Virus record (IMG/VR): IMGVR_UViG_3300032038_000018
Location: 1-64,000 of that record
Length of the DNA: 64,000 bases
Source of the DNA: a virus
Taxonomy: Duplodnaviria; Caudoviricetes
Strand: one strand, 5' to 3'
Part shown: piece after piece, positions 2,549-24,760 of the stretch
Layout of the letters: every line of letters begins with the position of its first letter
Numbering within the stretch: the first letter of the stretch is position 1
Translations under genes and position numbers: made by a program
The notes under the pieces: generated by a model
Told to the model about the DNA's origin: nothing
Seen by the model: the letters and a program-made list of their open reading frames with translations, nothing else
The model's database searches: none

Positions 2549-4462
2549 ATGGCAAATGAATTTAAGAATTTAATAAATAAAGATTTATTATCTTATTATA
2601 ATACTAAAGTAGACAAACGTGAAGATGACAAAATTAGTAGTTTGCCTATTACAAATAAAGCTGAATTTTTAAAATCGTATTTTGAATCTAATAGTGATGG
2701 CAAAGTATATGGTGTAAAATTTGCATATGATGCAAATGGTGTAATCCAAGCTACATCCGGAGTTAAATATGGTGCTAATAATGGATTAGTTGTAGAACCA
2801 TCTACAAGAACTGTAATTGGCAGAGATGATTATAGATCTATAAATGTATTTAGATCTATAGATGCTAATGTGCACTATGGATCAGATGGCAATATAGTTA
2901 TAGATGCTATATCTGGAGAAGATGGATTTAGTTATACTGGAAAAGTAGACGTAGTATGTATATTTGCTCCTGTATATGAAAGAATATATGATGAAGAAGA
3001 GACAGTAAATGGAGTTACTACGAAATGGTGGCATATAGAGTGGTGTGATAGACCCAAAGAAGGATTTACACTGAATATCTTATGCAAAGATATTCATGGG
3101 AAAAATCAAGGATTCTATACTATAACCAAATTCCCATCTGTATGGATAGATGGCGCTCCTTATAGTAGTGCTGGTAGATATCCATGGGTAAATGCTGCTA
3201 TATCTGGAGTAGCTGGTCCGTCATATAATAACTGTGTTGACAGATATCATGCCAGAAATGAGAATATGACAGCAATGACGCATGGACAAGTTGCTATGAT
3301 ACAACGTATATTTATGATGAAATATGGCAAAACTAGATTTGACCAATGCTTGAATGGATTAATATCTTATTATAAGAATAGACTATATATACAAACAGCT
3401 GTTACAAATAAAAATTATGTAGTACTTACTACTACAGATGCTAATAGCATCTATGCCGATACACAGATAGATATAGGTAATCCTACTGCAGATAGAGTAA
3501 TTGCAGCTCGTAGTATTGCTACCAATGTATATGTAACAGGAAAATCTGCTGATATAGTTTTATTTAAGAATATAAAAGCTGGGTTTACTATATCTGACAC
3601 TAATTATACTATAGCTAGTGCATCTGAATTTGATATCTTATGTAAAAAGCTATCTACTACTGGAGATGCTGTAGATTTAGATGGCAATAATATCACAATG
3701 CAATTTGTGTATACAGACCCCAATACATCTGAAGAAAGTACAGTAGATATTAATCTGGAACTTAATGTATCTGGTACTACATATACGCTTTATGCATATG
3801 ATAGCGGTAATAATGTAATAGGATATAGTGCTAGTGGTGAGACTACATATACGGTTATCTATATAGATACTGCAGTTACAGTAGACACAACTTGTAGCGT
3901 ACAAACTGCTATATATGAGACTGGTTATTCATTGGGCATACTTGGTAAAGATGGCTCTTATATCAATGGAGCATTTAACACAAGTGGCAGGAATCCTAGT
4001 GTAATGAGTGGCATAGAGCTATTTAATGGCGCTTGGGATATATGTGGCAACGCAGTATATAATTATGACAGCAATACTAACTTACATGTATTAGTGCAGA
4101 ATGATTTAAGAGCAGTTACTAAGACTACAAATACTATTACCGCAGAGTATACAGATGCAGGTTATTTCACACATACAACATCAGGATCTTCATATAAGTA
4201 TGGTAAAGCCGTCAGATATGATTTAGTAAATGGAGTTTACTTAATAGATTGTGATGGTGGCTCTAGTTCAAATGGGTTATGCGATGCAATTTACTATCTT
4301 GGAGATCAAAAGTCGGGGTTCTACGAGGTGCTGTTGTTTGGTTCCTTGAGCGCCGGCGGCCGCGCTGGCCCGTTTTGTTCTGATGCGAGCACTGCCCTTT
4401 CGCACGCGACCTGGGGCTTCGCCGCTCGCGCGGCGTTCGTTTGCTCGGTTCGGGCTTCCTAA
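2549..4462 (+). CDS. DGR target protein, tail-fibre/receptor-binding-like with C-terminal CLec-type variable domain
   Basis: C-terminal GIELFNGAWDICGN...VLLFGSLSAGGRAGPFCSDASTALSHATWGFAAR; its 3' end is a VR matching the downstream TR. Confidence 0.8.
   Translation: MANEFKNLINKDLLSYYNTKVDKREDDKISSLPITNKAEFLKSYFESNSDGKVYGVKFAYDANGVIQATSGVKYGANNGLVVEPSTRTVIGRDDYRSINVFRSIDANVHYGSDGNIVIDAISGEDGFSYTGKVDVVCIFAPVYERIYDEEETVNGVTTKWWHIEWCDRPKEGFTLNILCKDIHGKNQGFYTITKFPSVWIDGAPYSSAGRYPWVNAAISGVAGPSYNNCVDRYHARNENMTAMTHGQVAMIQRIFMMKYGKTRFDQCLNGLISYYKNRLYIQTAVTNKNYVVLTTTDANSIYADTQIDIGNPTADRVIAARSIATNVYVTGKSADIVLFKNIKAGFTISDTNYTIASASEFDILCKKLSTTGDAVDLDGNNITMQFVYTDPNTSEESTVDINLELNVSGTTYTLYAYDSGNNVIGYSASGETTYTVIYIDTAVTVDTTCSVQTAIYETGYSLGILGKDGSYINGAFNTSGRNPSVMSGIELFNGAWDICGNAVYNYDSNTNLHVLVQNDLRAVTKTTNTITAEYTDAGYFTHTTSGSSYKYGKAVRYDLVNGVYLIDCDGGSSSNGLCDAIYYLGDQKSGFYEVLLFGSLSAGGRAGPFCSDASTALSHATWGFAARAAFVCSVRAS
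4328..4438 (+). repeat. DGR variable repeat (VR)
   Basis: 111-nt gap-free alignment to 4652..4762; 13 of the 18 TR adenines are substituted; GC-rich island in an AT-rich gene. Confidence 0.88.
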
Positions 4463-4521: not shown

Positions 4522-4651
4522 GAGGGAGAGGGGGTAGAGTTTTTTAGATTTCATATAAAACTATTAAACAATTTTATGTAGAGTAAATACAATTTATTCT
4601 ATCGGTTGATGGAGCACCAAACGACGAGCAGAATATGAAAATATTCTGTTG

Positions 4652-4762
4652 GTGCTGTTGTTTGGCAACTTGAACAACGGCGGCAATGCTGGTCCGTTTT
4701 GTTCGAATGCGAACAATGCCCTTTCGAACCCGTCCTGGAACTTTGGGTCTCGTCCTGCCTTC
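4652..4762 (+). ncRNA. DGR template repeat (TR)
   Basis: Intergenic copy of the VR in which all 18 adenines lie in nine in-frame AAC/AAT codons. Confidence 0.85.
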
Positions 4763-4883
4763 GGATACTGCATTTTATCAAATTCAGAGTAATTTTTATA
4801 AAGTATCATGATTTATTTCATGATACTTTATTTTTGTTAATATATGAGAAAAATTCTATAATTGTAGATTATTATCACGTGAG

Positions 4884-5288
4884 GTGAATACAATGATATA
4901 TTATCTCGCAGCACAAGTTAAGATAAAGAATGGAATTAATGGGAATTATCCTGTTTTATCACAAATACGAATAAAGAGATATAATTCACAAGTTGCTCCT
5001 TCTATAGTTATTGCAGATTATAATGCATCTGTAAGAACTGATGGAACTAGTCCTATTATAGTTGGTAGATGTATGATAGCATCTGACCAGCAAAGTATAA
5101 TGTTAGAACGCAGTCTGTCAATATCAGAACTTACATACGATGCACTTGCAAAATATGATAAATATTTTACAGATGGATTCGTATTATCTACTTCTGTAAT
5201 GACTTCAGATATTGTAAAGAATTACATTTCTCCTGATATTAATGCTTCTCCTGTAAATATGATGTGGAGACTCAGATATCAGGATTAA
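4884..5288 (+). CDS. Hypothetical protein
   Basis: 134-aa ORF with GAGGTGA RBS region. Confidence 0.6.
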   Translation: MNTMIYYLAAQVKIKNGINGNYPVLSQIRIKRYNSQVAPSIVIADYNASVRTDGTSPIIVGRCMIASDQQSIMLERSLSISELTYDALAKYDKYFTDGFVLSTSVMTSDIVKNYISPDINASPVNMMWRLRYQD

Positions 5289-5325
5289 TCGGAACTTTTT
5301 AATAATTTATAAATGAGGTGATCAC

Positions 5326-5646
5326 ATGGCTGGTCCGATAGCAGAGCATAGTTTGTCAAATGATGCAATTAAAGCAATAATTGCACAATATGGCAAAAAA
5401 TTAAAATTCATAAAGACCGAAAATAATACAGTTGCAGTAAACCAACAAGAAATTGGTTCTCCTGTATATATAGATGCATCTACGGATATAGAGTACAAGA
5501 ATTATGATGGATATGATTTCATAAAAGTAAGAGCATATGATCCTTTTAATAGAAAAACATATTCATCTCTAATTCGTACACATGATATTCGTACATTCGT
5601 AATAGCTGAAAAAGAAACTGATATACTAGACGGATTTAGATGTTAA
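5326..5646 (+). CDS. Hypothetical protein, tandem paralogue A
   Basis: Shares IKTENNTVA, YDGYDFIKV.AYDPF and DILDGFRC with the next ORF. Confidence 0.75.
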   Translation: MAGPIAEHSLSNDAIKAIIAQYGKKLKFIKTENNTVAVNQQEIGSPVYIDASTDIEYKNYDGYDFIKVRAYDPFNRKTYSSLIRTHDIRTFVIAEKETDILDGFRC

Positions 5647-5663
5647 TATAAGGGAGTGATGAA

Positions 5664-5978
5664 ATGGCTATATTAAATGAGCATAGCATGACATATGCGG
5701 CATTAAAAGAAATACTCGATGAATTTGGCGAACGAGTTAAATATATTAAAACCGAAAATAATACAGTTGCGCTCAATCAACAAATAATTGGTTATCCGTT
5801 CATGTTAACCAATTCTGATATTGAGCATGAGACATATGATGGATATGATTTTATAAAAGTAAAAGCATATGATCCATTTACTAGAAAAATATATTATTCT
5901 TTAATACGAACCAATGATATTAGAACAGTTGTAGTTGCTGATAAAGCAACGGATATACTAGACGGATTTAGATGCTAA
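5664..5978 (+). CDS. Hypothetical protein, tandem paralogue B
   Basis: Clear paralogue of 5326..5646. Confidence 0.75.
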   Translation: MAILNEHSMTYAALKEILDEFGERVKYIKTENNTVALNQQIIGYPFMLTNSDIEHETYDGYDFIKVKAYDPFTRKIYYSLIRTNDIRTVVVADKATDILDGFRC

Positions 5979-5999
5979 ATAAAATGGAGGTGAACGTCT

Positions 6000-8261
6000 A
6001 TGGCTTCTTCAGAGTCTTATGCATCATTGTTTAGCGGTGATGAATTAGATTTTGCGATAGCTAAAGCGCTTGGCAATAAATATAGAGGCATTACTACACC
6101 CGGATGTCATTTAGTCGGAGATACTACTGATAATGTAGTAGACTTGGACAAATTGCTCATCCCGGGTAAATATACTATTTATTTTTATATCAATGGACCT
6201 GCTAGCTTCGTATATGATGAAACTACGCAGACAAATATGAGTGAAGATGATGCTGATCCGGAATCACTTACACAGACATCTTCATTTAGTGTAAGACCTA
6301 TTTATCTTGTAATGTATACATCCGGTGGGGATCATCTGTATCAAACTATTATGGTTGGTACCAGACTCTATTGGAGAGATATGTGGTCTAACGAAAATAT
6401 TACAGGTACTCATATACCTTGGAGATGCTCAGACCTTGGTGTTGAATCATCAGTCATTACCAATAATCTCGAATATAAAGAGACTGGTATAAGCGAAGCA
6501 TTATCTCAGAGAATGGGTACTGCATTAGTTGATATGGTAAAGAGACTCCAAATAGGTAATGCAAACTTATTGAATTACACTAATGGATATTTCTCATATG
6601 GAACCAGATTTAATGATTCTCAAACTATTTCTCAGAATATGTCCAAATATTGGAATATGACTAATGGTTCAATCAATACAGTAACATATGATGCTATTAG
6701 AGATGGTCAGATTACTTATCCTACTGATGATACGACTGCACTTAATATAGATCTATTCCCTGTATTTGATGATTTGGATGCCGATATAATTTCAACGTTT
6801 AGATCAACTAGTACAAGTGCTGTATTCAAATCTTATTCAACTTCTTCTACATCCGGTGTGGAATATAATAAGATTTACATGAGTGGTAATTCTAAATATA
6901 CTGCATCTGTATATTTAGTATTCGATCCTTTATTCTTAAAGATGCAAAATGAAAATGTCGCATACATATCTATTATCTTAGATGGTAACCAAGAAGAAGT
7001 AGTTAAGACTGAAACTATTACTCTTAACAGACTTGGTACGGCTATGGAAGAAACGGATATGCATGGATATCCTATAGCAAACCCGGGTGTACCTTATTGC
7101 AGAAATAAGATATTCGAACAGACTGATTATGAATCTGAGCAATATGATGGTCAGTTCAGAGTAATGAATAAAGCTGCAAGTGAGATGGGTTATTATAGGC
7201 TTACAGTAACTATAACACCTGAAGATTTAGATAATGCAAATATAACTGATATAAAGATAGCATTTGGCTTTAATGGCACAGATGCTAAGGGATTATTTGT
7301 ATTACCTAAGGTTGAATATGGTGAATTTGCAACACAATACAATCATAGCTGGGACGATCTTTATTATTATTTCACCAACTGTGAGTCATTCTTCGGTGTT
7401 CCTATTAATATATTGCATCCTACTGAGTTTGAGAATCAGGATAGCTTTGTTTATGATGCGGCAAACAACAGATTCGAAGCTGAACCCGTTGCAATTGGTG
7501 GCGGCGGTGGATTTGTAGTTCATGACAGAGATGATCTCAATATTGAAACTGTAAGTGATAACTCACGCAGATATGCAACTAATAAGCGAAATAATTCAGA
7601 GAAGATTCCTATATCCTATAAACCTGATGGAGAAACTCTTATATTTGGGCATGATCCTAATCATGTAGATCAGAAAACTGGGTATGCTGAAGATGGATAT
7701 CAGGAACTCTATACAGCTAATCATCTGGAACATTATTATCCCAGATATAAAAACATTCTGTTCTTAAACAAACCGACTAATGAGTTATTATATTGGGATG
7801 ACTTATGTAATAGAAATAAACCCGATGGTTCTGCCGATGGATCGGATTATGAAGGTCGTGGCGGATTTGTATCTCTGAATAAATCATTTGTAATAAGAAA
7901 AGGTGTAGACGGACATGCTGGTCCTCAACCTGTTAATTATACAAACGATCAATCTTATACAGAGAGCTATGTTGGCACTAACCAATTCTGGTTACATAAA
8001 CCCGATAGTGTTGGTCAGTCGGCAGTTAGCAAAGCTGCCACTATTAAGTATTATGACCCTGAAGAAGAGATGTGGTTAACTGCTAAGGCAGATGCAGCTA
8101 GCATATATGTAGTACAGCCTACAGCACCAGGACCTGAATTCTTAGGTAAATTCTGGATAAACTCTACTACAGATGCAGTGTATTATTCCATTATGCAAAA
8201 TAATCAAGTTGTATGGAAACCTATCTTCTCTATTTGGGGAGCTAATCCTACCACTACATAA
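6000..8261 (+). CDS. Tail fibre/baseplate-associated structural protein
   Basis: IGNANLLNYT...PKVEYGEFATQY module and C-terminal VVQPTAP...GKFWINSTT...W motif, both typical of phage tail proteins. Confidence 0.6.
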   Translation: MASSESYASLFSGDELDFAIAKALGNKYRGITTPGCHLVGDTTDNVVDLDKLLIPGKYTIYFYINGPASFVYDETTQTNMSEDDADPESLTQTSSFSVRPIYLVMYTSGGDHLYQTIMVGTRLYWRDMWSNENITGTHIPWRCSDLGVESSVITNNLEYKETGISEALSQRMGTALVDMVKRLQIGNANLLNYTNGYFSYGTRFNDSQTISQNMSKYWNMTNGSINTVTYDAIRDGQITYPTDDTTALNIDLFPVFDDLDADIISTFRSTSTSAVFKSYSTSSTSGVEYNKIYMSGNSKYTASVYLVFDPLFLKMQNENVAYISIILDGNQEEVVKTETITLNRLGTAMEETDMHGYPIANPGVPYCRNKIFEQTDYESEQYDGQFRVMNKAASEMGYYRLTVTITPEDLDNANITDIKIAFGFNGTDAKGLFVLPKVEYGEFATQYNHSWDDLYYYFTNCESFFGVPINILHPTEFENQDSFVYDAANNRFEAEPVAIGGGGGFVVHDRDDLNIETVSDNSRRYATNKRNNSEKIPISYKPDGETLIFGHDPNHVDQKTGYAEDGYQELYTANHLEHYYPRYKNILFLNKPTNELLYWDDLCNRNKPDGSADGSDYEGRGGFVSLNKSFVIRKGVDGHAGPQPVNYTNDQSYTESYVGTNQFWLHKPDSVGQSAVSKAATIKYYDPEEEMWLTAKADAASIYVVQPTAPGPEFLGKFWINSTTDAVYYSIMQNNQVVWKPIFSIWGANPTTT

Positions 8262-8327: not shown

Positions 8328-9944
8328 ATGCCAATAAATGAAGAATATTTAGCTCATAATCCGGAAGCTTTAAATAATCATAATGCAACTAATTCAGAAG
8401 CTGATTATGATAAAGCGTTAGCTTACTGGAATCATCCAATGACGGATGAGCAAGCTAAATCATTATTAAATAGAATCAAATTTGCTTTCTTATATAGAAA
8501 TGGATTTAAATTAAATAGTGATAAATGGAGAGAAAGTACAATAGACGTACTCGATATCTCCCTAAATAATATAGAAAGAACTAAGAAAGTATCTTCTGAT
8601 GAATATAATATAGAGGCAGATGATAATCCTAAATATGGTATCGATCAAGTTGATACTATGCCTACAGCTTCTATAGATTATTTAGATATAACTGTCCAAT
8701 ACATTGGACAATCTATTTTCGATAGTTATCAACATAATGCATTCTATAAATGCATAGAAGACTCTGGAGTATATGAATGGACAGAAGTGGATCCCGTTGA
8801 TACATCAGATGCAAATATTATTAAAGCTATAGATGGTGTTGCTATAATTAACTCTCTCCTTAGAATAAATGAAATAGGAGATGATATGACAGAAATAGCA
8901 AATACATCTTATAATAAAATATTAAAAGCATTCATCAATGGATCATCTTATAAAAATCATACTAAAGAATATATTCTAAATGGAAAAACTCTAACAGATG
9001 TATTTCCGAATGAATCTACTGATGCAGATATTGCAGCAGCAAAGACCAAATATATCAATGTAATTACTATCAATACATCGACCGATGATTTTAATTTTGA
9101 ATCGGATGATGCAGCTAAGAGATTAAAACAAAAATCTTATATAGAGACTATATTACATGATATAAATGATATAATTAAATATGTAAATGCATTTACTGAT
9201 GCATATTTACGTCCATATGATGAGGGAACTCATCAAAATATAACTACAGCATTTGACTATTATGTACTCGATTATATAGTACAAATGATAGAAGCTGAAA
9301 ATGCTTTATTTGTTACTTTATTAACCAAATATGCCAGAACTATAATCGAAGATCCTACTGCTAAAGTAGATATTGATGTATCAATTCAGCATAAACAATT
9401 TAACCATGCCCCGTTTGTTGGCTCAATGTGTAATGGTGCATGTGTTGGATTATGCTTTGGCTCATGTGTTACAACATGTAACGGTTGCGGTGGTTGTACA
9501 TCATATTGTAGTTCATACTGTGGTGCTTCATGTTTTGGTGACTGTGGTAATGCTACATGCGTAGATAACTGTGCTGGTACATGCAAAGGTGAGTGTACAG
9601 GAGATTGTCAAGGTGCATGTACTAAAGATTGTGGAGATGATTGCTCATCATCATGTATAACCTCATGCGCTCATGAATGTAAAGGAAGTTGCACAGGTGG
9701 TTGTAGTATATCTTGCTCAGATAAATGCTCAACCGGATGTAATGATGGATGCTTTACATCATGTACTAGTAGCTGTGGTCATAGTTGTAGTGGTGGCGCT
9801 GCAGCTAAGAGTCCTAGCAAGTCTCCTCAGCCTGCAAATACCAAAACTATAAATACAAATACTAGGAACAATATAGGATTATATACACAAAGTGGAATAA
9901 ATACATCGAATAATGTCGATAGTAGTCCATACCATAATAGATGA
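8328..9944 (+). CDS. Structural-type N-terminal domain fused to CXXX-repeat radical SAM target domain
   Basis: About 360-aa N-terminal region including a tail-fibre-like DTMPTAS...VQYIG...FYKC...YEW segment, then 31 Cys in mostly 4-residue register starting MCNGACVGLCFGSC. Confidence 0.8.
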   Translation: MPINEEYLAHNPEALNNHNATNSEADYDKALAYWNHPMTDEQAKSLLNRIKFAFLYRNGFKLNSDKWRESTIDVLDISLNNIERTKKVSSDEYNIEADDNPKYGIDQVDTMPTASIDYLDITVQYIGQSIFDSYQHNAFYKCIEDSGVYEWTEVDPVDTSDANIIKAIDGVAIINSLLRINEIGDDMTEIANTSYNKILKAFINGSSYKNHTKEYILNGKTLTDVFPNESTDADIAAAKTKYINVITINTSTDDFNFESDDAAKRLKQKSYIETILHDINDIIKYVNAFTDAYLRPYDEGTHQNITTAFDYYVLDYIVQMIEAENALFVTLLTKYARTIIEDPTAKVDIDVSIQHKQFNHAPFVGSMCNGACVGLCFGSCVTTCNGCGGCTSYCSSYCGASCFGDCGNATCVDNCAGTCKGECTGDCQGACTKDCGDDCSSSCITSCAHECKGSCTGGCSISCSDKCSTGCNDGCFTSCTSSCGHSCSGGAAAKSPSKSPQPANTKTINTNTRNNIGLYTQSGINTSNNVDSSPYHNR

Positions 9945-9959
9945 TAGGTGGTGATAATT

Positions 9960-10604
9960 ATGGCTGGATGCGGAGTTTCTGATTGTAGTGTAGCATGTCA
10001 GAGTGAATGCATGCATATATGTGACGCAACTTGTTCCACTGCAAGTAGTACTACCAAAGCTAATAGCTGTGGTTGTGGACAATCAAATTGCGGAGTAGAA
10101 TGCGGCGGTAATGCAAGCAATGCAAGCTGTACAGGTAACTCATGTAACGGTGGCTGCTTTAAATCATGCCAAGCTTTATGCGGCGCCGGTAATGCCGGCA
10201 ATTGTCATGCAAATTGTACAGGTACTACCGGTCATAATAGTGGTAGTGGTGTAAATGGAATGAACTGCGGTGCTTCCAACTGCAGTGGTGGATGCCAAGA
10301 GAATTGTGCATATATGTGCTCAGATGGATGCTCATCATGTCATTCTACATGTAATGGCGGTTGTAGTGGTTGTACTTCCAGTTGTGGCGGTTGTGGCGAT
10401 GATTGCACAACTACATGTCACGCAACCGGAGATAGTATAAGCACTAGCGATAATTCTAACAATAGTAGCTGTAACCAAAGTGTATGTACTGCAGCATGTT
10501 CATCTATGTGTGCTTATGCATGTAATTATGGTAGTAATAGTTCTTGCACAGGTTGCGGTTCTTCATGCAAGGGAGCAACATCTTCTGTTACAGTAGACAT
10601 ATAA
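9960..10604 (+). CDS. CXXX-repeat Cys-rich protein (radical SAM target)
   Basis: ATG after AGGTGGTGA RBS; begins MAGC; 39 Cys. Confidence 0.8.
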   Translation: MAGCGVSDCSVACQSECMHICDATCSTASSTTKANSCGCGQSNCGVECGGNASNASCTGNSCNGGCFKSCQALCGAGNAGNCHANCTGTTGHNSGSGVNGMNCGASNCSGGCQENCAYMCSDGCSSCHSTCNGGCSGCTSSCGGCGDDCTTTCHATGDSISTSDNSNNSSCNQSVCTAACSSMCAYACNYGSNSSCTGCGSSCKGATSSVTVDI

Positions 10605-10695
10605 TATTAAATTTAGAATCCTTATAATGGGATTCTAAATTTATTTTGCCCAAGGACATAATGATAAATTTTAGTATATAAAGGAGGTATGCAAT

Positions 10696-11820
10696 ATGGC
10701 TGGATGTAAACAAGGTTCATGCGGTTCCAGCTGTGGACAAGGATGCGGAAGCTCTTGTGGAAGAGGTTGTGGCACAGCTTGCAGTAGTAGCTGTGGTCAA
10801 AGTTGTAGCACCGGTAACTCTGGGCAATCGCAAAGTGGCGGCAGTAGCAGTAGTAGCAGTTGCAGCGGTTGCGGTAAGAGCTGTGGCGACGCTTGTGGCG
10901 GAAGCACTTGTGGTACATCATCGGCGGCTCATGCATTACCTGCAGGCTGTGCTGGTAATACATGTACTGGCGGCTGCAGTGGCTGCAGTCATAGTGCCGT
11001 TGGTAGTAGTGGTAATTGCGGTATTACATGTTCGGCAAACTGCGGATTTAGCTGTGGAAAAAGTTGTGGATCAGATTGCACCGGATATTGTGGACCATCT
11101 TGTGGAGGCTTATGTGCAGCAGGTAGTGGTTCCGTACCAAGTGGCCCATCTGATACAGTAGATTGGACTCCTGTTCAATCTGGATGCAGCGTGTGCGATA
11201 CAACTTGTATGACAGAATGCTCAACCGGATGCAGTAGTGGATGCAAAAATGATTGTGGCGGCTGTGGTGGATGCTCCAATTCATGCACAGGCACTTGTAG
11301 TAATAACTGTAGTAAAACATGTAAAGGTTTTTGCACTGGCTCATGTGAAACAATGTGTGTTAATACATGTAGCTCATCTTGTAGCTCATGTACAAGTAGT
11401 TGTACTGGGTCATGCTCATCGTGTACCGGTAATTGTGTGCAATCATGTAATACTGGTTGCTTAGGATGCGATTCAGAATGCGATACAACATGTAAATTCG
11501 TATGTAGTCAACAATGCCAAGGTGGCTGCTCAGGACAGTGCTCAGGATGCACTAATAAATGTTCGTCGTGCTCTAATGACTGTAGTGGAACTTGTGGAGG
11601 CGATACATGTGCAACAACATGCAGAGCTTTATGCAAAAACTATTGCACAAGTTGTACAGGTTGCAATACTGCATGTGAAGATGGTTGCTTGTCATCTTGC
11701 ATAGGTTGCACTGGTACATGTGAAGGACAATGCACTGTATCTGCTACGGAAAGATCTATATCTACTCAACGAACATATCTTGAGAGTAGATACAATGAAA
11801 CATATTCCGAGGTGATTTGA
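10696..11820 (+). CDS. CXXX-repeat Cys-rich protein (radical SAM target)
   Basis: AAGGAGGT RBS; begins MAGC; 76 Cys in 374 aa. Confidence 0.85.
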   Translation: MAGCKQGSCGSSCGQGCGSSCGRGCGTACSSSCGQSCSTGNSGQSQSGGSSSSSSCSGCGKSCGDACGGSTCGTSSAAHALPAGCAGNTCTGGCSGCSHSAVGSSGNCGITCSANCGFSCGKSCGSDCTGYCGPSCGGLCAAGSGSVPSGPSDTVDWTPVQSGCSVCDTTCMTECSTGCSSGCKNDCGGCGGCSNSCTGTCSNNCSKTCKGFCTGSCETMCVNTCSSSCSSCTSSCTGSCSSCTGNCVQSCNTGCLGCDSECDTTCKFVCSQQCQGGCSGQCSGCTNKCSSCSNDCSGTCGGDTCATTCRALCKNYCTSCTGCNTACEDGCLSSCIGCTGTCEGQCTVSATERSISTQRTYLESRYNETYSEVI

Positions 11821-11821
11821 C

Positions 11822-12877
11822 GTGCATGATACAACGATAAATAAACCAATTCCTGTAAGGTCAAATCCTGCTAAGATAGAAAATAAAGCAATACCTAGCA
11901 ATTATCTTGCATTATTGAAAAGAATAATGATCGAATTTGCTAGAAGAAGTGGACTTAGAATAAATAATACAACCGGTGAATTATTAGGCGTATCATATTC
12001 TGGATTAAATGGTCCACTTAGAACTAATTTAACTTGGAATCCAAGTGAATTTTTCCCAGAAGATTTTAATGATACAGATATTGGTTCAGTAAGTGATACA
12101 AGATTAACTAAAGCACAAGCTGAATTTGTAATAAATAAATTATTAGAGATTTGTGATATAGAAGGCTATGCTAAAATACCCACTATAAACACAAATAATA
12201 CTACATCGATAACTCAAGTAAATGCAACGTTACCATTTCCTAAAGTTGCAGGAGTAATATCTCAATTATTTGAATATGGTACACTTTATGGTGTTTTGAA
12301 TACTATTTCTGCTGAATCATATACAAGCCCAACTAGTTCGTGTAGAACAGGTTGTACTGGTTTATGCTATGGCTCATGTGCAGTAAATTGTATTGAATCG
12401 TGTAGTAGTACATGCACAGGTGGTTGTTCAACAGGTTGCGATGGTACATGCTCTATTGATTGCACATCTGATTGTGCTGTAAATTGTAGCACTAATTGTA
12501 GCGGTGACTGTGAAAGTGGCTGTGACAGACTATGCATTGATGGATGCATGTCTGAATGTTTAGGCTCATGCACAACTACTTGTACGAATGCATGCAAAAC
12601 TGAATGCACGACTGAATGCGTTAGTTCATGCACAGGCGAATGCACCTTATATTGTACTGCAGAATGCTCAGTTAAATGTACTACTGAATGCGCATCAAGT
12701 TGCACGAATGCTTGCAGTGGATATTGCAAAGGAGGTTGCTATACAACATGCTCATCTACATGCTCAAGTTCATGTGGCTATAACAACTGTATGGGCGCAT
12801 GTAAATCTGGGTGTAGTACTTCGTGCACTAATGGCTGTAGTGGTAATTGTAGAGGTCATAGTAATTCAAATACGTAG
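11822..12877 (+). CDS. N-terminal domain plus CXXX-repeat target domain
   Basis: About 170-aa non-repetitive N-terminus, then SSCRTGCTGLCYGSC...; 43 Cys in the repeat, the first 37 in perfect 4-residue register. Confidence 0.85.
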   Translation: MHDTTINKPIPVRSNPAKIENKAIPSNYLALLKRIMIEFARRSGLRINNTTGELLGVSYSGLNGPLRTNLTWNPSEFFPEDFNDTDIGSVSDTRLTKAQAEFVINKLLEICDIEGYAKIPTINTNNTTSITQVNATLPFPKVAGVISQLFEYGTLYGVLNTISAESYTSPTSSCRTGCTGLCYGSCAVNCIESCSSTCTGGCSTGCDGTCSIDCTSDCAVNCSTNCSGDCESGCDRLCIDGCMSECLGSCTTTCTNACKTECTTECVSSCTGECTLYCTAECSVKCTTECASSCTNACSGYCKGGCYTTCSSTCSSSCGYNNCMGACKSGCSTSCTNGCSGNCRGHSNSNT

Positions 12878-12888
12878 GTGGTGATTTT

Positions 12889-13122
12889 ATGGCAGCGTGT
12901 TTTGGATGTGATTCAACATGTTTGGATGAATGTGTTGGAACTTGTAAGACATCGTGCTTAGGATGCAAAGATTCGTGCTCTTCATGTGGATCAAATTGTG
13001 CATCTACATGTATGCACAACTGTGGTACTGATTGTAATAAAATGTGTGGAAACACATGCTCTTTCTCATGCCAATCGTCATCATCTGATGCTAGTAGATA
13101 TAATAAGTATTTACAACTATAA
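12889..13122 (+). CDS. Short CXXX-repeat Cys-rich peptide
   Basis: 77 aa, 16 Cys, begins MAAC; RBS TAGGTGGTGATTTTATGGC. Confidence 0.8.
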   Translation: MAACFGCDSTCLDECVGTCKTSCLGCKDSCSSCGSNCASTCMHNCGTDCNKMCGNTCSFSCQSSSSDASRYNKYLQL

Positions 13123-13140
13123 TGAATAGGTGGTGATTTT

Positions 13141-13992
13141 ATGGCTGATTGTGCTAACTGTAGAAGCTCATGTACTGTAGACTGCTCTGGTACATGTCAA
13201 GGCGCTTGTTGGACTATGTGTGATAGATACTGCAGTGTCGGAAGTTCCGGAGGTAGTGCATGCACTGGCGGTTCATGCTCTGGTAGTTGTAGTGAAACCA
13301 GTACAGGCACTTGTTATAGATCGTGCACAGATGGATGCGATAACGGATGCGGAACCGGATGCATGCATAACTGCGTTGGTGGTTGTAATAGCTGCACTGG
13401 TAATTGTGACTATGCATGTTTAAAAACGTGTAATGGCTGCTCGGGTACATGCTTAGGCGCATGCAATACCAACTGCACAAGTGCATGTAGTATTAATTGT
13501 GGTAATGGTTGTGCTAGCGCGTGTACATCGTGTTATAAGACATGTCAAAATGGTTGTACTTCGTGTACAGGTGATTGTGGATCTGGTTGTGCTACTGGTT
13601 GCTCAACTGGTTGTAACAGTGGATGCAATGATGTATGCGAAAATGCATGCGATGAAACGTGCATTAATACGTGTAGAACAGGTTGTCAGTCTGGATGCGC
13701 TACAGATTGTGAATCCGGTTGTAAGACAGAATGCACAAATGCATGTGGAACAACATGCTCTGTACAATGTGGCAATATGTGTGGTGTTGGCTGTGCAGCT
13801 AATTGTCTAGAAGCTTGTGCAAATACTTGCGGCTCTGCAGCATGTACATCGTTCTGTACATCTGCATGCTCTGGTACATGTGCACGAGATTGCAAAACTA
13901 ACTGTACGAATGGTTGCTATGGCTGTGAATCAACGTGTACTCAAACATGTAGCGTAAGTTGTTCTGGTACAGCTGCCGAATATACGGCATAA
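13141..13992 (+). CDS. CXXX-repeat Cys-rich protein
   Basis: 283 aa, 67 Cys, begins MADC; same 19-nt RBS/start context as the previous gene. Confidence 0.85.
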   Translation: MADCANCRSSCTVDCSGTCQGACWTMCDRYCSVGSSGGSACTGGSCSGSCSETSTGTCYRSCTDGCDNGCGTGCMHNCVGGCNSCTGNCDYACLKTCNGCSGTCLGACNTNCTSACSINCGNGCASACTSCYKTCQNGCTSCTGDCGSGCATGCSTGCNSGCNDVCENACDETCINTCRTGCQSGCATDCESGCKTECTNACGTTCSVQCGNMCGVGCAANCLEACANTCGSAACTSFCTSACSGTCARDCKTNCTNGCYGCESTCTQTCSVSCSGTAAEYTA

Positions 13993-14046
13993 TAAAAAAC
14001 GGTGGTAAGAACGTAAATATAAATTTTTATTAAAGGAGAAATCATA

Positions 14047-14730
14047 ATGAGCATTTTTACAATGTACAAGGATATCACAGTTGATATCCCTGAAGATATT
14101 TATAATAAGCTTAATAGGTCATCTCGTGAATATGAGATGGCAACAACTGACGTATATTATTACATAATGAATGGCAACACAGTACAGTCTGCTATATTCG
14201 ATGAAATGATCAATGATGCACTTGATGCATACTTTGCACATTCTAAGAATAAAGATATCGTATCCAACGATTTCGTTATTCCTGCTATAAAGAGGGAATA
14301 TAATCTTGATGGCGATGATATAGTTATAAACAACTTCTGGAATATTACATTTGATGGAAATCATACATGTAATATTACTGACATAAAAGTATCCAAAAAT
14401 GATCAGGAAGTTGTGCATGAAGGTACTGTATCAGATGAGTGGGCAGAAAAGATAGGATATCTCCGTGCAAAAATTCAGGTGTATGATGCAATCATATCCA
14501 AGATAATGTCTTCTCTTAACTCTACAATTACTCAGAAAGTTAGAGATGAGTATGATAAGGTAAGAGATATCCGTATAAATCTTCTCATGGAAGAGGATGT
14601 TAATAAGAAAAACTTCCTCAATGAGATAGTTAAGCCTATTCTGGATGAGCATAATTGCGATCCTGAAAAGTGCACATGGAATCTCAATCCTATAGAAAAG
14701 ACATTCAATATAACCCGTACAGTTGATTGA
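14047..14730 (+). CDS. CXXX-repeat modification system accessory protein (TIGR04116-like, apparently duplicated)
   Basis: Directly upstream of the radical SAM; two helical halves ending FWNITFDGNHTCNIT and CTWNLNPIEKTFNIT. Confidence 0.55.
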   Translation: MSIFTMYKDITVDIPEDIYNKLNRSSREYEMATTDVYYYIMNGNTVQSAIFDEMINDALDAYFAHSKNKDIVSNDFVIPAIKREYNLDGDDIVINNFWNITFDGNHTCNITDIKVSKNDQEVVHEGTVSDEWAEKIGYLRAKIQVYDAIISKIMSSLNSTITQKVRDEYDKVRDIRINLLMEEDVNKKNFLNEIVKPILDEHNCDPEKCTWNLNPIEKTFNITRTVD

Positions 14731-14755
14731 TTATATAAGAGGCGGTGTAATTCTA

Positions 14756-16882
14756 ATGTATGAAAGAAAATATTCTCGTACAGAATCATTTCAAGATTTG
14801 ATTGCCCGTCTTTATCCGTTGTCAGATATCGCTCCCGATGTTCGGGAGCGTATTCTTTATGATAAAGATGGATATCCCATGCATTATGTAGCTAGAACAG
14901 TTACTTTCCAAGTTACAGATGACTGTAATCTCTGTTGTGTACCTGCTGGTACTATGATACTGATGGCAGACAAAACAGAAAAACCTATAGAAGAAATTTC
15001 TATAGGCGATAAAATTTTAACTTTTAATGAAAAACCTACACATGCATATCCAATGATGCACGAAGCAGAAGTAACTGCGACAATGTCAAGAGAGATTGAC
15101 TATGTGTATGATATAATAACAGATAGCTCAAGTTTAACTGTTACAGGTAATCATCCATTGTTATATTTAAATCCATTCGGATTTATGGAATATAAAGAAG
15201 TATCACATCTCAGAAAAGGCGATACTATATATGAATACAGTGGAAGACAAATGGTTGCCAGACATATAAGATCTATAGAAAAGCGTGCAGCTAAGACTAT
15301 AGTATATAACTTAACTACTTCGCTTAGTACATATGTGGCAAATAAAATAGCAGTGCATAACTGTTCTTATTGCTATCAGATAAATAAGAAGCACCATAGT
15401 ATGCCCTTTGAAGTAGCAAAAGAATTTGCCGATATGATACTCGAATCTACCAAAGAAAATAATGATTACATTACGGTAGAATCTTCGCCCGGTGTTGTAT
15501 TTGAGTTCATAGGTGGAGAACCGTTCTTGGAGATAGATCTTATTTCTAAAATCTCTGATTACTTAGTACAGAGAATGACTGAGATGAGACATCCATGGAG
15601 AGATAAGTTTATGTTTTCTATATGCTCTAATGGCCTTCTTTATAAGAATAAGAAAGTCCAAGCATATATGGAAAAATATAAATACAATATATCTTTCTCA
15701 GTATCTATAGATGGTAATAAAGAACTCCATGACTCATGCAGAGTTAAACCTGATGGGACCGGTTCATATGATATTGCTATAGATGCAGTTAATCATTATA
15801 GAGAGCACTTCCAAGGTAAGATGGGCTCTAAGATGACAATGGCTCCTAGTAATATTACATATGTATATGATGCAGTCAAAAATCTTATAGATCTCAAATA
15901 CGATGAGATTTATCTCAACTGTGTATATGAAAAAGGCTGGGAGCCTCATCATGCTACTGAGCTTTATAATCAATTCAAAATGTTATCTGACTATATGATA
16001 GAAAGTGGACATTTTGAAGATACATATTTATCATATCTGGACGATACAGGATTTCATCCTATGGGCGAGGAGCATCAGCAGAACTGGTGCGGTGGTACTG
16101 GCTCTATGATAGCTGTAGACTATAAGGGCGATATATATCCTTGTCTGAGATATATGGAATCTTCTATAGGCGATGATATAGAAGCTCCTGTAATTGGTAC
16201 AGTTGAAAAAGGATTCATGTATGACCAGAAGACTAAAGATCTGGTTCATGATATGAGAGCAATCTCCAGAAGATCTCAGTCTACTGATGAATGCTTCTAT
16301 TGTCCTATAGCACAATTATGCAGTTGGTGCTCTGCTTATAACTACCAAGAGTTTGGTACTATTAATAAACGTGCTACATATATCTGCATAATGCATAAGA
16401 GTAGGACACTTACCAATATCTATTATTGGAATAAAGGTTTTAAGAAATATGCACCTTGGTTTAAGTTTGCATCTTGGATTCCTAAAGAGTATGCTCTTGA
16501 AGTTATATCCGAAGAGGAATATAATATGCTCTTGAGTCTTATAGAATTTACAGATGAAGACAGAGCTCTTACTCAAAAGATGCTCGATGAAGGAAAGATA
16601 TCGGATAGATATATTAATTATGCTAGGACTGCACTTGAAACCAATAGACCTGTATTTACAAATGATATTGGTAAAGTAATGGTAGATGCACTCAACGCAG
16701 ATGGATCTCCTTGCTATGATGAAGTGATGTCTGCTAGTAAATATGGCAAAGATGTAGTCAAACTCGATGAGCCTATAGACTATACTTCTATTGCATATGC
16801 TGGAGTATTTGATTATATCAATAAACGTGGATTTGATATACATGCAGTTAAATTAATGGAGAAGTATGGTGGTTTAGAATGA
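14756..16882 (+). CDS. Radical SAM/SPASM peptide maturase, CXXX-repeat target family (TIGR04115-like), intein-containing
   Basis: TFQVTDDCNLC|CSYCYQ after splicing, EFIGGEPFL, SIDG, SPASM cysteines WCGG...YPC...CFYC...CSWC...YIC. Confidence 0.9.
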   Translation: MYERKYSRTESFQDLIARLYPLSDIAPDVRERILYDKDGYPMHYVARTVTFQVTDDCNLCCVPAGTMILMADKTEKPIEEISIGDKILTFNEKPTHAYPMMHEAEVTATMSREIDYVYDIITDSSSLTVTGNHPLLYLNPFGFMEYKEVSHLRKGDTIYEYSGRQMVARHIRSIEKRAAKTIVYNLTTSLSTYVANKIAVHNCSYCYQINKKHHSMPFEVAKEFADMILESTKENNDYITVESSPGVVFEFIGGEPFLEIDLISKISDYLVQRMTEMRHPWRDKFMFSICSNGLLYKNKKVQAYMEKYKYNISFSVSIDGNKELHDSCRVKPDGTGSYDIAIDAVNHYREHFQGKMGSKMTMAPSNITYVYDAVKNLIDLKYDEIYLNCVYEKGWEPHHATELYNQFKMLSDYMIESGHFEDTYLSYLDDTGFHPMGEEHQQNWCGGTGSMIAVDYKGDIYPCLRYMESSIGDDIEAPVIGTVEKGFMYDQKTKDLVHDMRAISRRSQSTDECFYCPIAQLCSWCSAYNYQEFGTINKRATYICIMHKSRTLTNIYYWNKGFKKYAPWFKFASWIPKEYALEVISEEEYNMLLSLIEFTDEDRALTQKMLDEGKISDRYINYARTALETNRPVFTNDIGKVMVDALNADGSPCYDEVMSASKYGKDVVKLDEPIDYTSIAYAGVFDYINKRGFDIHAVKLMEKYGGLE
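14936..15361 (+). mobile_element. Mini-intein (142 aa, no endonuclease) within the radical SAM CxxxCxxC motif
   Basis: Starts CVPAGT, block B TGNHP, block F VYNLT, ends VHN followed by Cys+1. Confidence 0.92.
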
Positions 16883-22747: not shown

Positions 22748-24760
22748 ATGTCAAAAACTAATCCATTGGTAGTACTTGACCCCGGACATGGTCCTGTTAC
22801 AAACCCGTATCCTGCAGCTAGCGGATATTATGAAGGCACTCAGATGTATAAGCTTATGCTTGTACTTAAGTCTCGCCTTGAAGAGAGTGGAATCAATGTA
22901 ATCACTACAAGGAAAAAGATTACAGATGATCCTGATCTGTCCACTCGTGGTTCGACTGCTGGTAAGAATAAAGCTGATTTATTTATATCTCTTCATTCCG
23001 ATGCAGTTGGTAACTATGTAGCATCTGCGAATGGTGTAAGTGCATACTATAGTATTCAAGACAGTGCTGCTAATAAAGTATTTGCAGCTAAAGTATCTTC
23101 TTCTATAGCAGCTCTTATAGGAACTAGAGATAGAGGTGCATTGACCAGACTTGGCAGTAATGGACTTGATTACTATGGAGTAATTAGAAGTGCTGCTGCA
23201 TCTGGATGCAGAAATGCATTCTTGGTTGAGCATGGTTTCCATACCAATTCAAACGATGTTAAATGGTTAATATCCGATAATAAATTAGCTCAGATTGCTG
23301 AAATGTGGACTAAGATATTATGCGAATATTTTGGGAAGACTTATAAACAAGCTGTCCCGATTTCTAATATCAATGTAACGACCACAACTAATCCGACAAC
23401 AACTGCTACTACAGATAAACAAATCACCATATACAAGCAACTTTATAAATATACTAATGCAGCTAATGCATTATCCGGTAATACTTCATTAGCATCCGGA
23501 CAGTTACAGCCTGGTGCATATTATATCTATAAAGAGTATAATGGTGCAACTAACTTAACTAAGACAGCAGGAACTCCAGGTTCTTGGGTAGTTATTAGTA
23601 ATGCTGCTGCATCTGTACCTGCAGATATAGAAACCCCTGTAGCTACACCTGATAAGTATACAACTACTAATAAATTCAAGATCTATATGAGTTCTGCAGA
23701 TGCTGCTGCTAAAGTAAATCCTCTTAAGAATTCAGATGGAACTTTTAAGACATACGATGCAGGCACATACTATATTTATAAGAGAATTAATGATACTGTA
23801 ATTAATATATCCACTAAATCAGGTATTGCCGGTGCATGGATAAATATCAACGACTTCCTTGAAGACGAGAAAACCGTATTCAAGAAAGGTGATATTGCAG
23901 TATTTAAGTCAGGTGTAATTCCCTATTATAGCGATGGCACACGAATTCCGTTATACGTTATTGCAGAAGTAAATGGTAAGAAGAGTTCTCCTGTAATATC
24001 TGTAGACCTCAACAACAATGTTTCAATATACAATGTAGAGAAATCCATTCCTAATAAGTATCTTCAGATTGGTATATATGCTACAGATGCAACACTTGCT
24101 AAAGCAAATGGATATTCTGATAAGCATACAACCAAAGATGAGCTCACATCTTTATTAGAGTCTAAATATGGTTCTCTTAAACTCTTAGCTAATAGCAAAG
24201 GTTATAAAGAGTTTGTAGAATACATGGATAATCTTTTAGAAGATGATGTCGTTATAGATACTGATAGCGATCTTGATCCTATTATGGGCGAATCGTATCT
24301 CACTGTAAATCAGTTAGTAAGATTCGTTAAAGCACAAAATCCCAAGTTTGATGGAAACATTGCTGCTGCATTTATAGAGAAATGTAAAAAGTATGGCATT
24401 CGTGGTGATGTCGCATTCTGTCAATCTATCTTAGAGACAGGATGGTTTAAATATGTAGGCTCTGCTGTTACAGAAGATCAACATAATTATGCAGGTCTTG
24501 GTGTAACATCTAATGGTGTTAAAGGTCTTTCATTCGGATCTGTATCTGCTGGTGTAGAAGCTCAGCTTCAACATCTGTATGCATATGCAACTAAAGCAGA
24601 TCTTCCCGAAGGAACTACATTATTAGACCCCAGATTCAAATTAGTTGCTAGAGGTTCTGCTCCCAGATGGGTAGATCTTAATCAGAAGTGGTCTTCTAGC
24701 ATTGAGTATGGTCAGAAGATATTAGCAATATATAAACAAGCGTGCAATAGTAGCTTATAA
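22748..24760 (+). CDS. Endolysin: Amidase_3 plus C-terminal glucosaminidase
   Basis: LDPGHG, ISLHSDA and LVEHGFHTN zinc-amidase motifs; QSILETGWF...HNYAGLG glucosaminidase; two internal YYIYK...G.W repeats. Confidence 0.88.
   Translation: MSKTNPLVVLDPGHGPVTNPYPAASGYYEGTQMYKLMLVLKSRLEESGINVITTRKKITDDPDLSTRGSTAGKNKADLFISLHSDAVGNYVASANGVSAYYSIQDSAANKVFAAKVSSSIAALIGTRDRGALTRLGSNGLDYYGVIRSAAASGCRNAFLVEHGFHTNSNDVKWLISDNKLAQIAEMWTKILCEYFGKTYKQAVPISNINVTTTTNPTTTATTDKQITIYKQLYKYTNAANALSGNTSLASGQLQPGAYYIYKEYNGATNLTKTAGTPGSWVVISNAAASVPADIETPVATPDKYTTTNKFKIYMSSADAAAKVNPLKNSDGTFKTYDAGTYYIYKRINDTVINISTKSGIAGAWININDFLEDEKTVFKKGDIAVFKSGVIPYYSDGTRIPLYVIAEVNGKKSSPVISVDLNNNVSIYNVEKSIPNKYLQIGIYATDATLAKANGYSDKHTTKDELTSLLESKYGSLKLLANSKGYKEFVEYMDNLLEDDVVIDTDSDLDPIMGESYLTVNQLVRFVKAQNPKFDGNIAAAFIEKCKKYGIRGDVAFCQSILETGWFKYVGSAVTEDQHNYAGLGVTSNGVKGLSFGSVSAGVEAQLQHLYAYATKADLPEGTTLLDPRFKLVARGSAPRWVDLNQKWSSSIEYGQKILAIYKQACNSSL

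Follow-up and report, generated by a model that had tools for sequence, protein, structure and literature searches.

The first 64,000 nucleotides (nt) of the IMG/VR virus record IMGVR_UViG_3300032038_000018, in the following called the window, contain a single operon (8328-16882, plus strand) that encodes six cysteine-rich proteins, a protein of 227 amino acids (aa) and a radical S-adenosylmethionine (SAM)/SPASM enzyme. On balance, we favour the reading that the six genes represent modules of a set of structural proteins of the phage tail, which are built as ladders of cysteines and are probably cross-linked by thioethers through a leader-independent enzyme of the TIGR04115 family, with the 227-aa protein as a helper. 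Two kinds of modules would be involved: a bare tract of Cxxx units (T) and a domain of about 105 aa with a fixed edge (D), which always runs straight into a tract. Phages would combine T and D modules freely, and the apparently leaderless proteins of the window would be T modules that became separate genes by splitting and duplication. The record comprises 128 kb at an estimated completeness of 52%, and therefore belongs to a jumbo phage, of which the window is the first half of the record. DNA nearly identical to the window is contained in two bovine-gut metagenome studies. A contig from a sheep-gut metagenome (run X6) carries the same gene set and differs at about 5-8% of positions in the compared part (window 8328-14730).

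The most conserved part of this arrangement is the junction at which the cysteine (Cys) tracts begin. The first-pass annotation of this DNA had described a motif, CxGLCxGSC, with which both long proteins open their tract. The quoted sequences are indeed present, CNGACVGLCFGSC as aa 368-380 of p538 (538 aa; nt 9429-9467) and CRTGCTGLCYGSC as aa 174-186 of p351 (351 aa; nt 12341-12379), and each of them forms the first CxxxC run of its protein. Judged by the sequences, the sharing of this motif is no matter of chance, whereas its exact form had to be revised. Among 98 cluster representatives with the same N-terminal domain (clustering at 50% identity), the signature reads [ST][SG]-C-R(45%)-[GAS]-[AS]-C-[TS]-G-L(93%)-C, and the 'xGxC' behind it is kept only loosely; the conserved core is [ST][SG]-C-R-x-x-C-[TS]-G-L-C, with the subsequent G-S being variable. 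When the anchor was chosen independently of the motif, xGL or xGM was found in 99 of 103 sequences. C.G[LM]C accounts for 115 of the 4226 CxxxC units of the surveyed proteins, which amounts to about one per anchored protein, as we call those which carry D. The signature CRxxC[TS]GLC is evidently the invariant C-terminal edge of D.

The long N-termini of p538 and p351 had been described as non-repetitive. They proved not to be idiosyncratic domains: both are copies of one conserved domain, D, with insertions, and the motif is its edge. D can be recognised by LTAxELxxLKxKIKAEMxRR close to its start and by I-AEHG-K-ID-LL-I-D around its middle. In almost every related locus there is a Cys-ladder protein whose first ~105 residues are D and whose tract opens with SSSCRGAC(T/S)GLC. 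Of about 118 orthologous loci in phages or prophages, 108 were matched by a D profile built without the cysteines; among the others, most are truncated on the upstream side of the enzyme. In a library of 1.8 billion proteins the same profile found 601 clusters (50% identity) at E<=1e-3, 363 of them at E<=1e-10. Within the best 150 of these 601 clusters, 95 combine motif and tract, 6 are short sequences containing the motif, and in 2 a tract is present without the exact motif; the remainder consists of 39 short fragments and 8 long, tract-free sequences that are apparently frameshifted or chimeric. D clearly joined to a partner other than a Cys tract was not seen among these best 150 clusters. 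No Pfam model matched D plus signature at E<=10, nor did any NCBIfam model at thresholds of E<=0.01-1, which differed between proteins. The segment MPTAS...W of p538, which had been labelled tail-fibre-like, turned out to be an insertion between conserved blocks of D; it is absent from the closest relative, P0019, and gave no Pfam match at E<=10, so that the label was dropped. A comparison of this insert with the 753-aa protein encoded directly upstream revealed no similarity either (BLAST E 0.29).

The Cys tracts themselves comprise 212 CxxxC units across the six proteins of the window, with a spacing of four residues in 12-56 intervals per protein. The positions x1-x3 between the cysteines are mostly S, G or T, and there is no fixed Asp/Glu acceptor. 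Tracts of up to 145 Cys in 650 aa are found in relatives. The NCBIfam target models TIGR04114, TIGR04117 and TIGR04118 matched only p77 (TIGR04118, 18.6 bits at a cut-off of 35), and none of the other five proteins at E<=0.01. Searches of the six Cys proteins, D and the p538 insert against Pfam, NCBIfam and PHROGs yielded, apart from this sub-threshold TIGR04118 match, only phrog_6085, a family of unknown function that matches the tracts; a Pfam or PHROG tail family was not found for D or the insert.

The placement of D within proteins of relatives indicates what kind of element it is. In L006, the locus with the closest enzyme (56% identical), a 968-aa protein (4628-7534) starts with a bare tract of about 280 aa, followed by D ending in ...VSH-CRGACTGLC, a second tract and a Cys-free domain of about 440 aa. 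In L112 (9112-9852) and L113 (7014-8003), distant cassettes with enzymes 38-40% identical and the Cys protein downstream of the enzyme, a D-like region lies C-terminal to the tract; the match is weak (E 1e-4), and the hallmark helix is present. Other N-terminal domains precede D in P0099 and P0133, and in L118 D and the tract are separate open reading frames (ORFs), where the tract ORF opens with the signature. The order D-T is common; T alone, T-D-T-X (L006) and, on the weak match, T-D (L112, L113) also occur. The Cys-free C-terminal domain of the L006 protein is possibly receptor-binding and has no counterpart in the window by tblastn. Because D and its motif are internal in L006 and, on a weak match, C-terminal in L112 and L113, we regard D as a module of a structural protein and not as a leader or an N-terminal 'entry' device, as had been suggested for the motif. 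We propose that D with its signature serves as a folded anchor or nucleation point, for attachment, oligomerisation or setting of the register.

The same observations bear on the view that the cassette encodes a classical ribosomally synthesised and post-translationally modified peptide (RiPP), with D as a large, protein-like leader that is later cleaved, the tracts released as secreted or lytic-cycle peptides, and the bare ORFs as extra cores or decayed copies. D is known only together with Cys tracts, other RiPP classes do have protein-like leaders (cited in PMC13692751) and NCBIfam names the enzyme a 'peptide maturase'. However, D is internal in L006 and, on the weak match, C-terminal in L112 and L113; no protease or exporter family was detected among the scanned cassette neighbours; tracts are as long as 650 aa with 145 Cys; and the cassette constantly follows baseplate genes in three types of prophages (see below). 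We consider this explanation very unlikely.

The remaining four proteins of the window have neither D nor the signature. As had been reported, their ORFs start with MAGC (9960 and 10696), MAAC (12889) and MADC (13141), so that Cys is residue 4 in each case. Since all six frames are partly open over the tracts, such ORFs could in principle be non-genes, open frames produced by the biased composition of the repeats. The evidence speaks strongly for genes: each of the six Cys genes has a strong, correctly spaced Shine-Dalgarno site of the GGTGGTGAT or AGGAGG type 4-8 nt ahead of the start codon (that of p538 being ttGGTGGTGATaataaATG), the 12-nt period of Cys codons exists in one frame only, and 12 clades share this architecture. 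The indels listed for the bare ORFs in the diverged sheep-gut contig either have lengths divisible by three or form a +1/-1 pair 4 nt apart, and thus keep the frame; from this we conclude that the bare ORFs are, by the pattern of changes, genes under selection for their frame. The idea of spurious frames is hardly conceivable any more. The same contig is rearranged over a short stretch within the p351 tract (between 12631 and 12746), which perhaps reflects variation in repeat number.

With respect to their origin, the bare chains look like tract modules detached from one fibre-like protein by splitting and duplication, since anchored tracts are short beside bare partners and since p374 and p351 correspond to one gene in L006. 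Bare partners occur in 12 of 44 clade representatives. In five of these (L017, L023, L026, L095 and L097) the anchored protein has 11-18 tract Cys and the bare partner 44-96, and the sums of 55-114 come near the median of 60 for solo proteins. Overall, the Cys number of anchored proteins is lower when a bare partner is present than when they stand alone (Mann-Whitney p = 0.001). Furthest in this direction go the window and L006: each encodes four bare chains, and their cysteines add up to 273 and 212, respectively. The bare p374 and the anchored p351 of the window, which are split by a stop codon and one base (p351 starts with GTG 1 nt past the p374 stop), together match the first three parts of the single L006 gene, p374 corresponding to the first tract of the 968-aa protein. 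In the L023 and L026 clades a bare tract follows in frame after the anchored ORF, with one stop codon between them.

The latter arrangement deserves an own remark. In L026 (8508-9185), L023 (8538-9182) and L063 (near 4873), the anchored ORF ends in a single TAA or TAG, beyond which the frame continues as a Cys-tract ORF of about 215-225 aa; this was observed in two clades and more than 30 contigs. The head of the tract ORF has no ATG, GTG or TTG. It shows a conserved AGG-GCT-TGT (R-A-C), preceded at a distance of 7-8 nt by a strong AAGGAGG, at exactly the place where relatives have ATG-GCT-...-TGT (M-A-x-C). Read-through of the stop or a non-canonical initiation codon could explain this.

If the bare chains are detached tracts, they would be expected to work together with the anchored chains, and this part of the earlier proposal fits the evolutionary evidence. 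Bare chains may join the anchored ones, possibly covalently. An opposite view is that only the anchored proteins are substrates, while the bare chains stay unmodified and, as Cys-rich proteins that bind metal or serve as disulfide- or thiol-rich filler, have only ancestry and composition in common with them. The lack of D and signature in the bare chains and the absence of bare chains from 32 of the 44 clades would agree with this. Nevertheless, we judge it unlikely: the strict period of four is kept in bare chains as in anchored tracts (12-56 spacings per protein), the bare genes lie within the operon between substrates and enzyme, and both the continuity of one bare chain with an anchored chain in L006 and the in-frame tracts of L023 and L026 connect the two classes.

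The enzyme of the operon matched TIGR04115 ('radical SAM peptide maturase, CXXX-repeat target family') with 401.1 bits (E 5.7e-120, model positions 11-359), above the cut-off of 350; in a genome search its score was 396 bits. The SPASM model TIGR04085 gave 34.2 bits (cut-off 27). The next-best models were PapB (154.7 bits), QhpD (95) and the SCIFF maturase (92), which are all thioether formers and score far below their own cut-offs. From the membership in TIGR04115, the chemistry of these nearest relatives and the precedent of CrpC/CrpA, discussed below, we infer that the enzyme would form thioether rings along the tracts.

Recognition without a classical RiPP leader had been proposed for this system, and the enzyme itself agrees with this. 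The cluster motif begins after only about 60 residues, and no PqqD/RiPP recognition element (RRE) family matched enzyme or accessory protein in Pfam and NCBIfam scans, which a divergent RRE could escape; thus a mechanism by classical leader and RRE appears not to be available, and four substrates have Cys already at residue 4. The T modules that lack D and the signature suggest that the enzyme may recognise the repeat itself.

A 142-aa mini-intein interrupts the CX3CX2C cluster motif of the maturase, which reads C-NLC-C-SY-C after its removal. The boundaries were read against the intein-free L003. Pfam Intein_splicing, Hint and Hom_end_hint matched, all below gathering scores, and the element has no endonuclease domain. 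Since the intein splits the motif and its +1 extein Cys is the second cluster ligand, the enzyme should not be able to bind its cluster until splicing has taken place. The intein is also absent from L026, while L004, L005, L106 and L119 show long matches that suggest own inserts.

Between substrate and enzyme lies a helper family of about 100 aa, which was found in 114 loci. In the alignment it is tandemly duplicated in three loci only: the window (14047-14730), L006 (8721-9365) and L100 (7181-7846). An AlphaFold2 (AF2) model of the 227-aa helper (predicted local distance difference test, pLDDT, 90.7) is composed of two units that both contain a strand, two long helices and a beta hairpin. Foldseek found nothing at E<=0.001 for this model in the PDB, and the VIA-align hits did not exceed Z 8.0 and were all generic helical hairpins, among them a prefoldin subunit (Z 7.0). 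TIGR04116 (cut-off 50 bits) matched neither the phage record at E<=10 nor three accessory proteins at E<=1; in five cassette-bearing host genomes it gave no match at E<=0.01, in a search that matched no control genome either. TIGR04119 had no match in the phage record. For the complex of the helper with D plus signature of p351, the prediction scored 0.01, which speaks neither for nor against an interaction. Duplication of the helper was considered as a marker of bare substrates and rejected, because it is duplicated in L100, where a bare chain was not found, and single in nine clades with bare partners.

Helper and signature are central to the main competing explanation, in which the signature is the entry site of the enzyme on anchored substrates and bare chains are modified only when bound to an anchored chain or after being handed over by the accessory protein. 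Within the family, no feature is more strongly conserved than the signature, which stands at the start of the tract even where D is internal; bare chains of L097, which opens with MASCEGSCSGLC, and of L118 begin with this very signature. In addition, the accessory protein is universal and is duplicated in both jumbo phages with four bare chains (the window and L006), and the split genes imply a joint work of bare and anchored chains. On the other hand, the signature is absent from all four bare chains of the window, and the distribution of the duplicated helper just described does not follow that of the bare chains. We regard an entry site as possible, although clearly less probable than recognition of the repeat within a modular tail protein. 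A further extension of the modular reading would be that the RRE-less enzyme makes bonds within and between chains and covalently splices bare tracts onto the D-anchored chain, resulting in a 'vulcanised', protease-proof tail appendage with the CRxxCxGLC edge as nucleation or register point; this extension is speculative and, in our view, rather unlikely.

The assignment to the tail is derived from the gene context of relatives. A scan of IMG/VR with the enzyme alignment revealed 230 viral contigs with enzyme relatives, 80 of which were retrieved. In bacterial genomes, orthologues with 37-58% identity were detected in genomes and metagenome-assembled genomes of Clostridia, mostly Oscillospiraceae and Lachnospiraceae; further orthologues of the cassette enzyme occur in Neglectibacter, Eubacterium pyruvativorans, Anaerolentibacter and Vallitalea. 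A phage collection contained no close relative, the best being unannotated faecal contigs with 34-35% identity, and enzymes of cultured phages (Erwinia, Salmonella and others, including SPN3US) are only 23-26% identical to that of the window. In L090 (in Neglectibacter), L026 (a clade of about 40 kb) and L112 (in Desulfosporosinus), baseplate wedge genes (phrog_6, phrog_120, phrog_521) are followed by the cassette and then by a tail-fibre or endolysin gene. In the window, an endolysin gene at 22748-24760 is the sole recognisable gene nearby, and the rest of the flanks is mostly unannotatable. A protein of phrog_17147 (unknown function) is encoded at window 2549-4462 and at 11843-14263 of L026, beside the cassette in both and, in L026, behind it.

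At this point we want to state what weighs against tail modules that are cross-linked by repeat recognition. Presence in the virion and the cross-links are predictions from the genes. The Cys proteins of the window score below the curated cut-offs of the NCBIfam target models. PHROGs gave no baseplate match for the window's own flanks, so that the tail context comes from relatives. D has no recognisable fold (best structural Z 3.6 for an AF2 model with pLDDT 64.7), and confidence in the modelled tract is low. The lack of a clear non-Cys partner of D would fit a role linked to modification, such as a protein-like leader or a docking domain, equally well as an anchor. Finally, the signature at the head of the bare chains in L097 and L118 may mean that it matters to the enzyme, which weakens the claim that the repeat alone is sufficient.

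The features of the cassette are listed in the following table. Just upstream of the 753-aa protein there are two adjacent, paralogous ORFs of about 105 aa (window 5326-5646 and 5664-5978), each ending in ...DILDGFRC and without a family match.

Table. Positions in the window of the genes and gene parts of the Cys-ladder cassette and of the gene directly upstream.
Feature	Position	Strand	Remarks
753-aa protein directly upstream of the cassette	6000..8261	+	fibre-like by position only; no family match
p538, anchored Cys-ladder protein	8328..9944	+	D with two insertions, aa 1-367; CNGACVGLCFGSC; tract of ~31 Cys; Cys-free tail of ~50 aa
p214, bare Cys-ladder protein	9960..10604	+	MAGC start; 39 Cys; no match to the D-domain hidden Markov model
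p374, bare Cys-ladder protein	10696..11820	+	MAGC start; 76 Cys; Cys-free linker between two tract blocks
p351, anchored Cys-ladder protein	11822..12877	+	D, aa 1-173; CRTGCTGLCYGSC; 41 CxxxC units
p77, bare Cys-ladder protein	12889..13122	+	MAAC start; 16 Cys; TIGR04118 below cut-off (18.6 bits)
p283, bare Cys-ladder protein	13141..13992	+	MADC start; 67 Cys; phrog_6085 (E 1.9e-9)
Accessory (helper) protein, 227 aa	14047..14730	+	tandem duplication of a ~100-aa unit
Radical SAM/SPASM maturase, TIGR04115	14756..16882	+	likely start ATG 14756; ORF open from TTG 14723
Mini-intein, 142 aa, within CX3CX2C of the maturase	14936..15361	+	CNLC / C...HN / CSYC

Among known systems, the CXXX-repeat radical SAM system of NCBIfam is similar in the enzyme above the TIGR04115 cut-off, in the Cys at every fourth residue and in a protein of about 100 aa between substrate and enzyme. 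It was catalogued by comparative genomics, and our literature search found no paper or biochemical study on TIGR04115 or the CXXX-repeat system; it brought up only the work on CrpA/CrpC described next. In contrast to its short peptides, the substrates in the window are proteins of 77-538 aa; moreover, the Cys proteins stay below the cut-offs of the target models, the helper has no TIGR04116 match and the cassette is located in phage tail modules.

A biochemical precedent is found in Methanococcus voltae, where CrpC, a radical SAM/SPASM enzyme of TIGR04463, makes ranthionine cross-links on the Cys-rich protein CrpA, whose processing persisted after removal of the N-terminal domain (PMC13692751). 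As is predicted for the window, a SPASM radical-SAM enzyme acts there on a whole Cys-rich repeat protein with an N-terminal domain. Here, however, the enzyme is of another family (57 bits to TIGR04463, cut-off 525) and has no RRE match, whereas CrpC has an RRE; the repeats of CrpA have 17 residues with C-x-x-Q/D, compared to a period of four in the window, and the archaeal system is cellular and not part of a phage tail module.

By score, the closest characterised relatives of the enzyme are PapB/PapA (freyrasin), CteB/SCIFF and QhpD, with the SPASM architecture in common. Within repeated CxxxD motifs, such maturases link a Cys through a thioether to a residue at a distance of a few positions. 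The window enzyme lies below the PapB cut-off (340) and has no RRE match, its tracts lack the fixed Asp/Glu acceptor, and its substrates are 10-100 times longer, some without any leader. Some phage structural proteins are cross-linked enzymatically or autocatalytically, and among these the isopeptide chainmail of the HK97 capsid is comparable as a covalent reinforcement of a virion part, if the proposed role of the window proteins is correct; it differs in its chemistry, in the dedicated radical-SAM enzyme found here and in concerning the capsid, not the tail.

To our knowledge, radical-SAM thioether enzymes have been described almost only with short, leader-guided peptides. The first protein-sized case, published in 2026, is archaeal. 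New in the present system are the fixed signature with which D ends, the recurrence of bare modules and their split-gene origin, the internal and, on weaker matches, C-terminal D, and the duplicated helper. The overall pattern looks like the pieces of an enzyme-stapled tail appendage and not like a peptide antibiotic. The same chemistry is probably applied here to proteins that reach 538 aa (in relatives, 650 and 968 aa) and belong to the tail modules of phages and prophages whose hosts are Clostridia of gut and rumen. D with its CRxxCxGLC edge and the bare T modules provide a concrete, testable grammar for such proteins, and raise the questions how the enzyme recognises its substrates, whether cross-links are formed between chains and what role a Cys-ladder rod may have on a virion in a protease-rich anaerobic habitat. 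A leader-independent cross-linking enzyme of this kind might also become useful as a tool.

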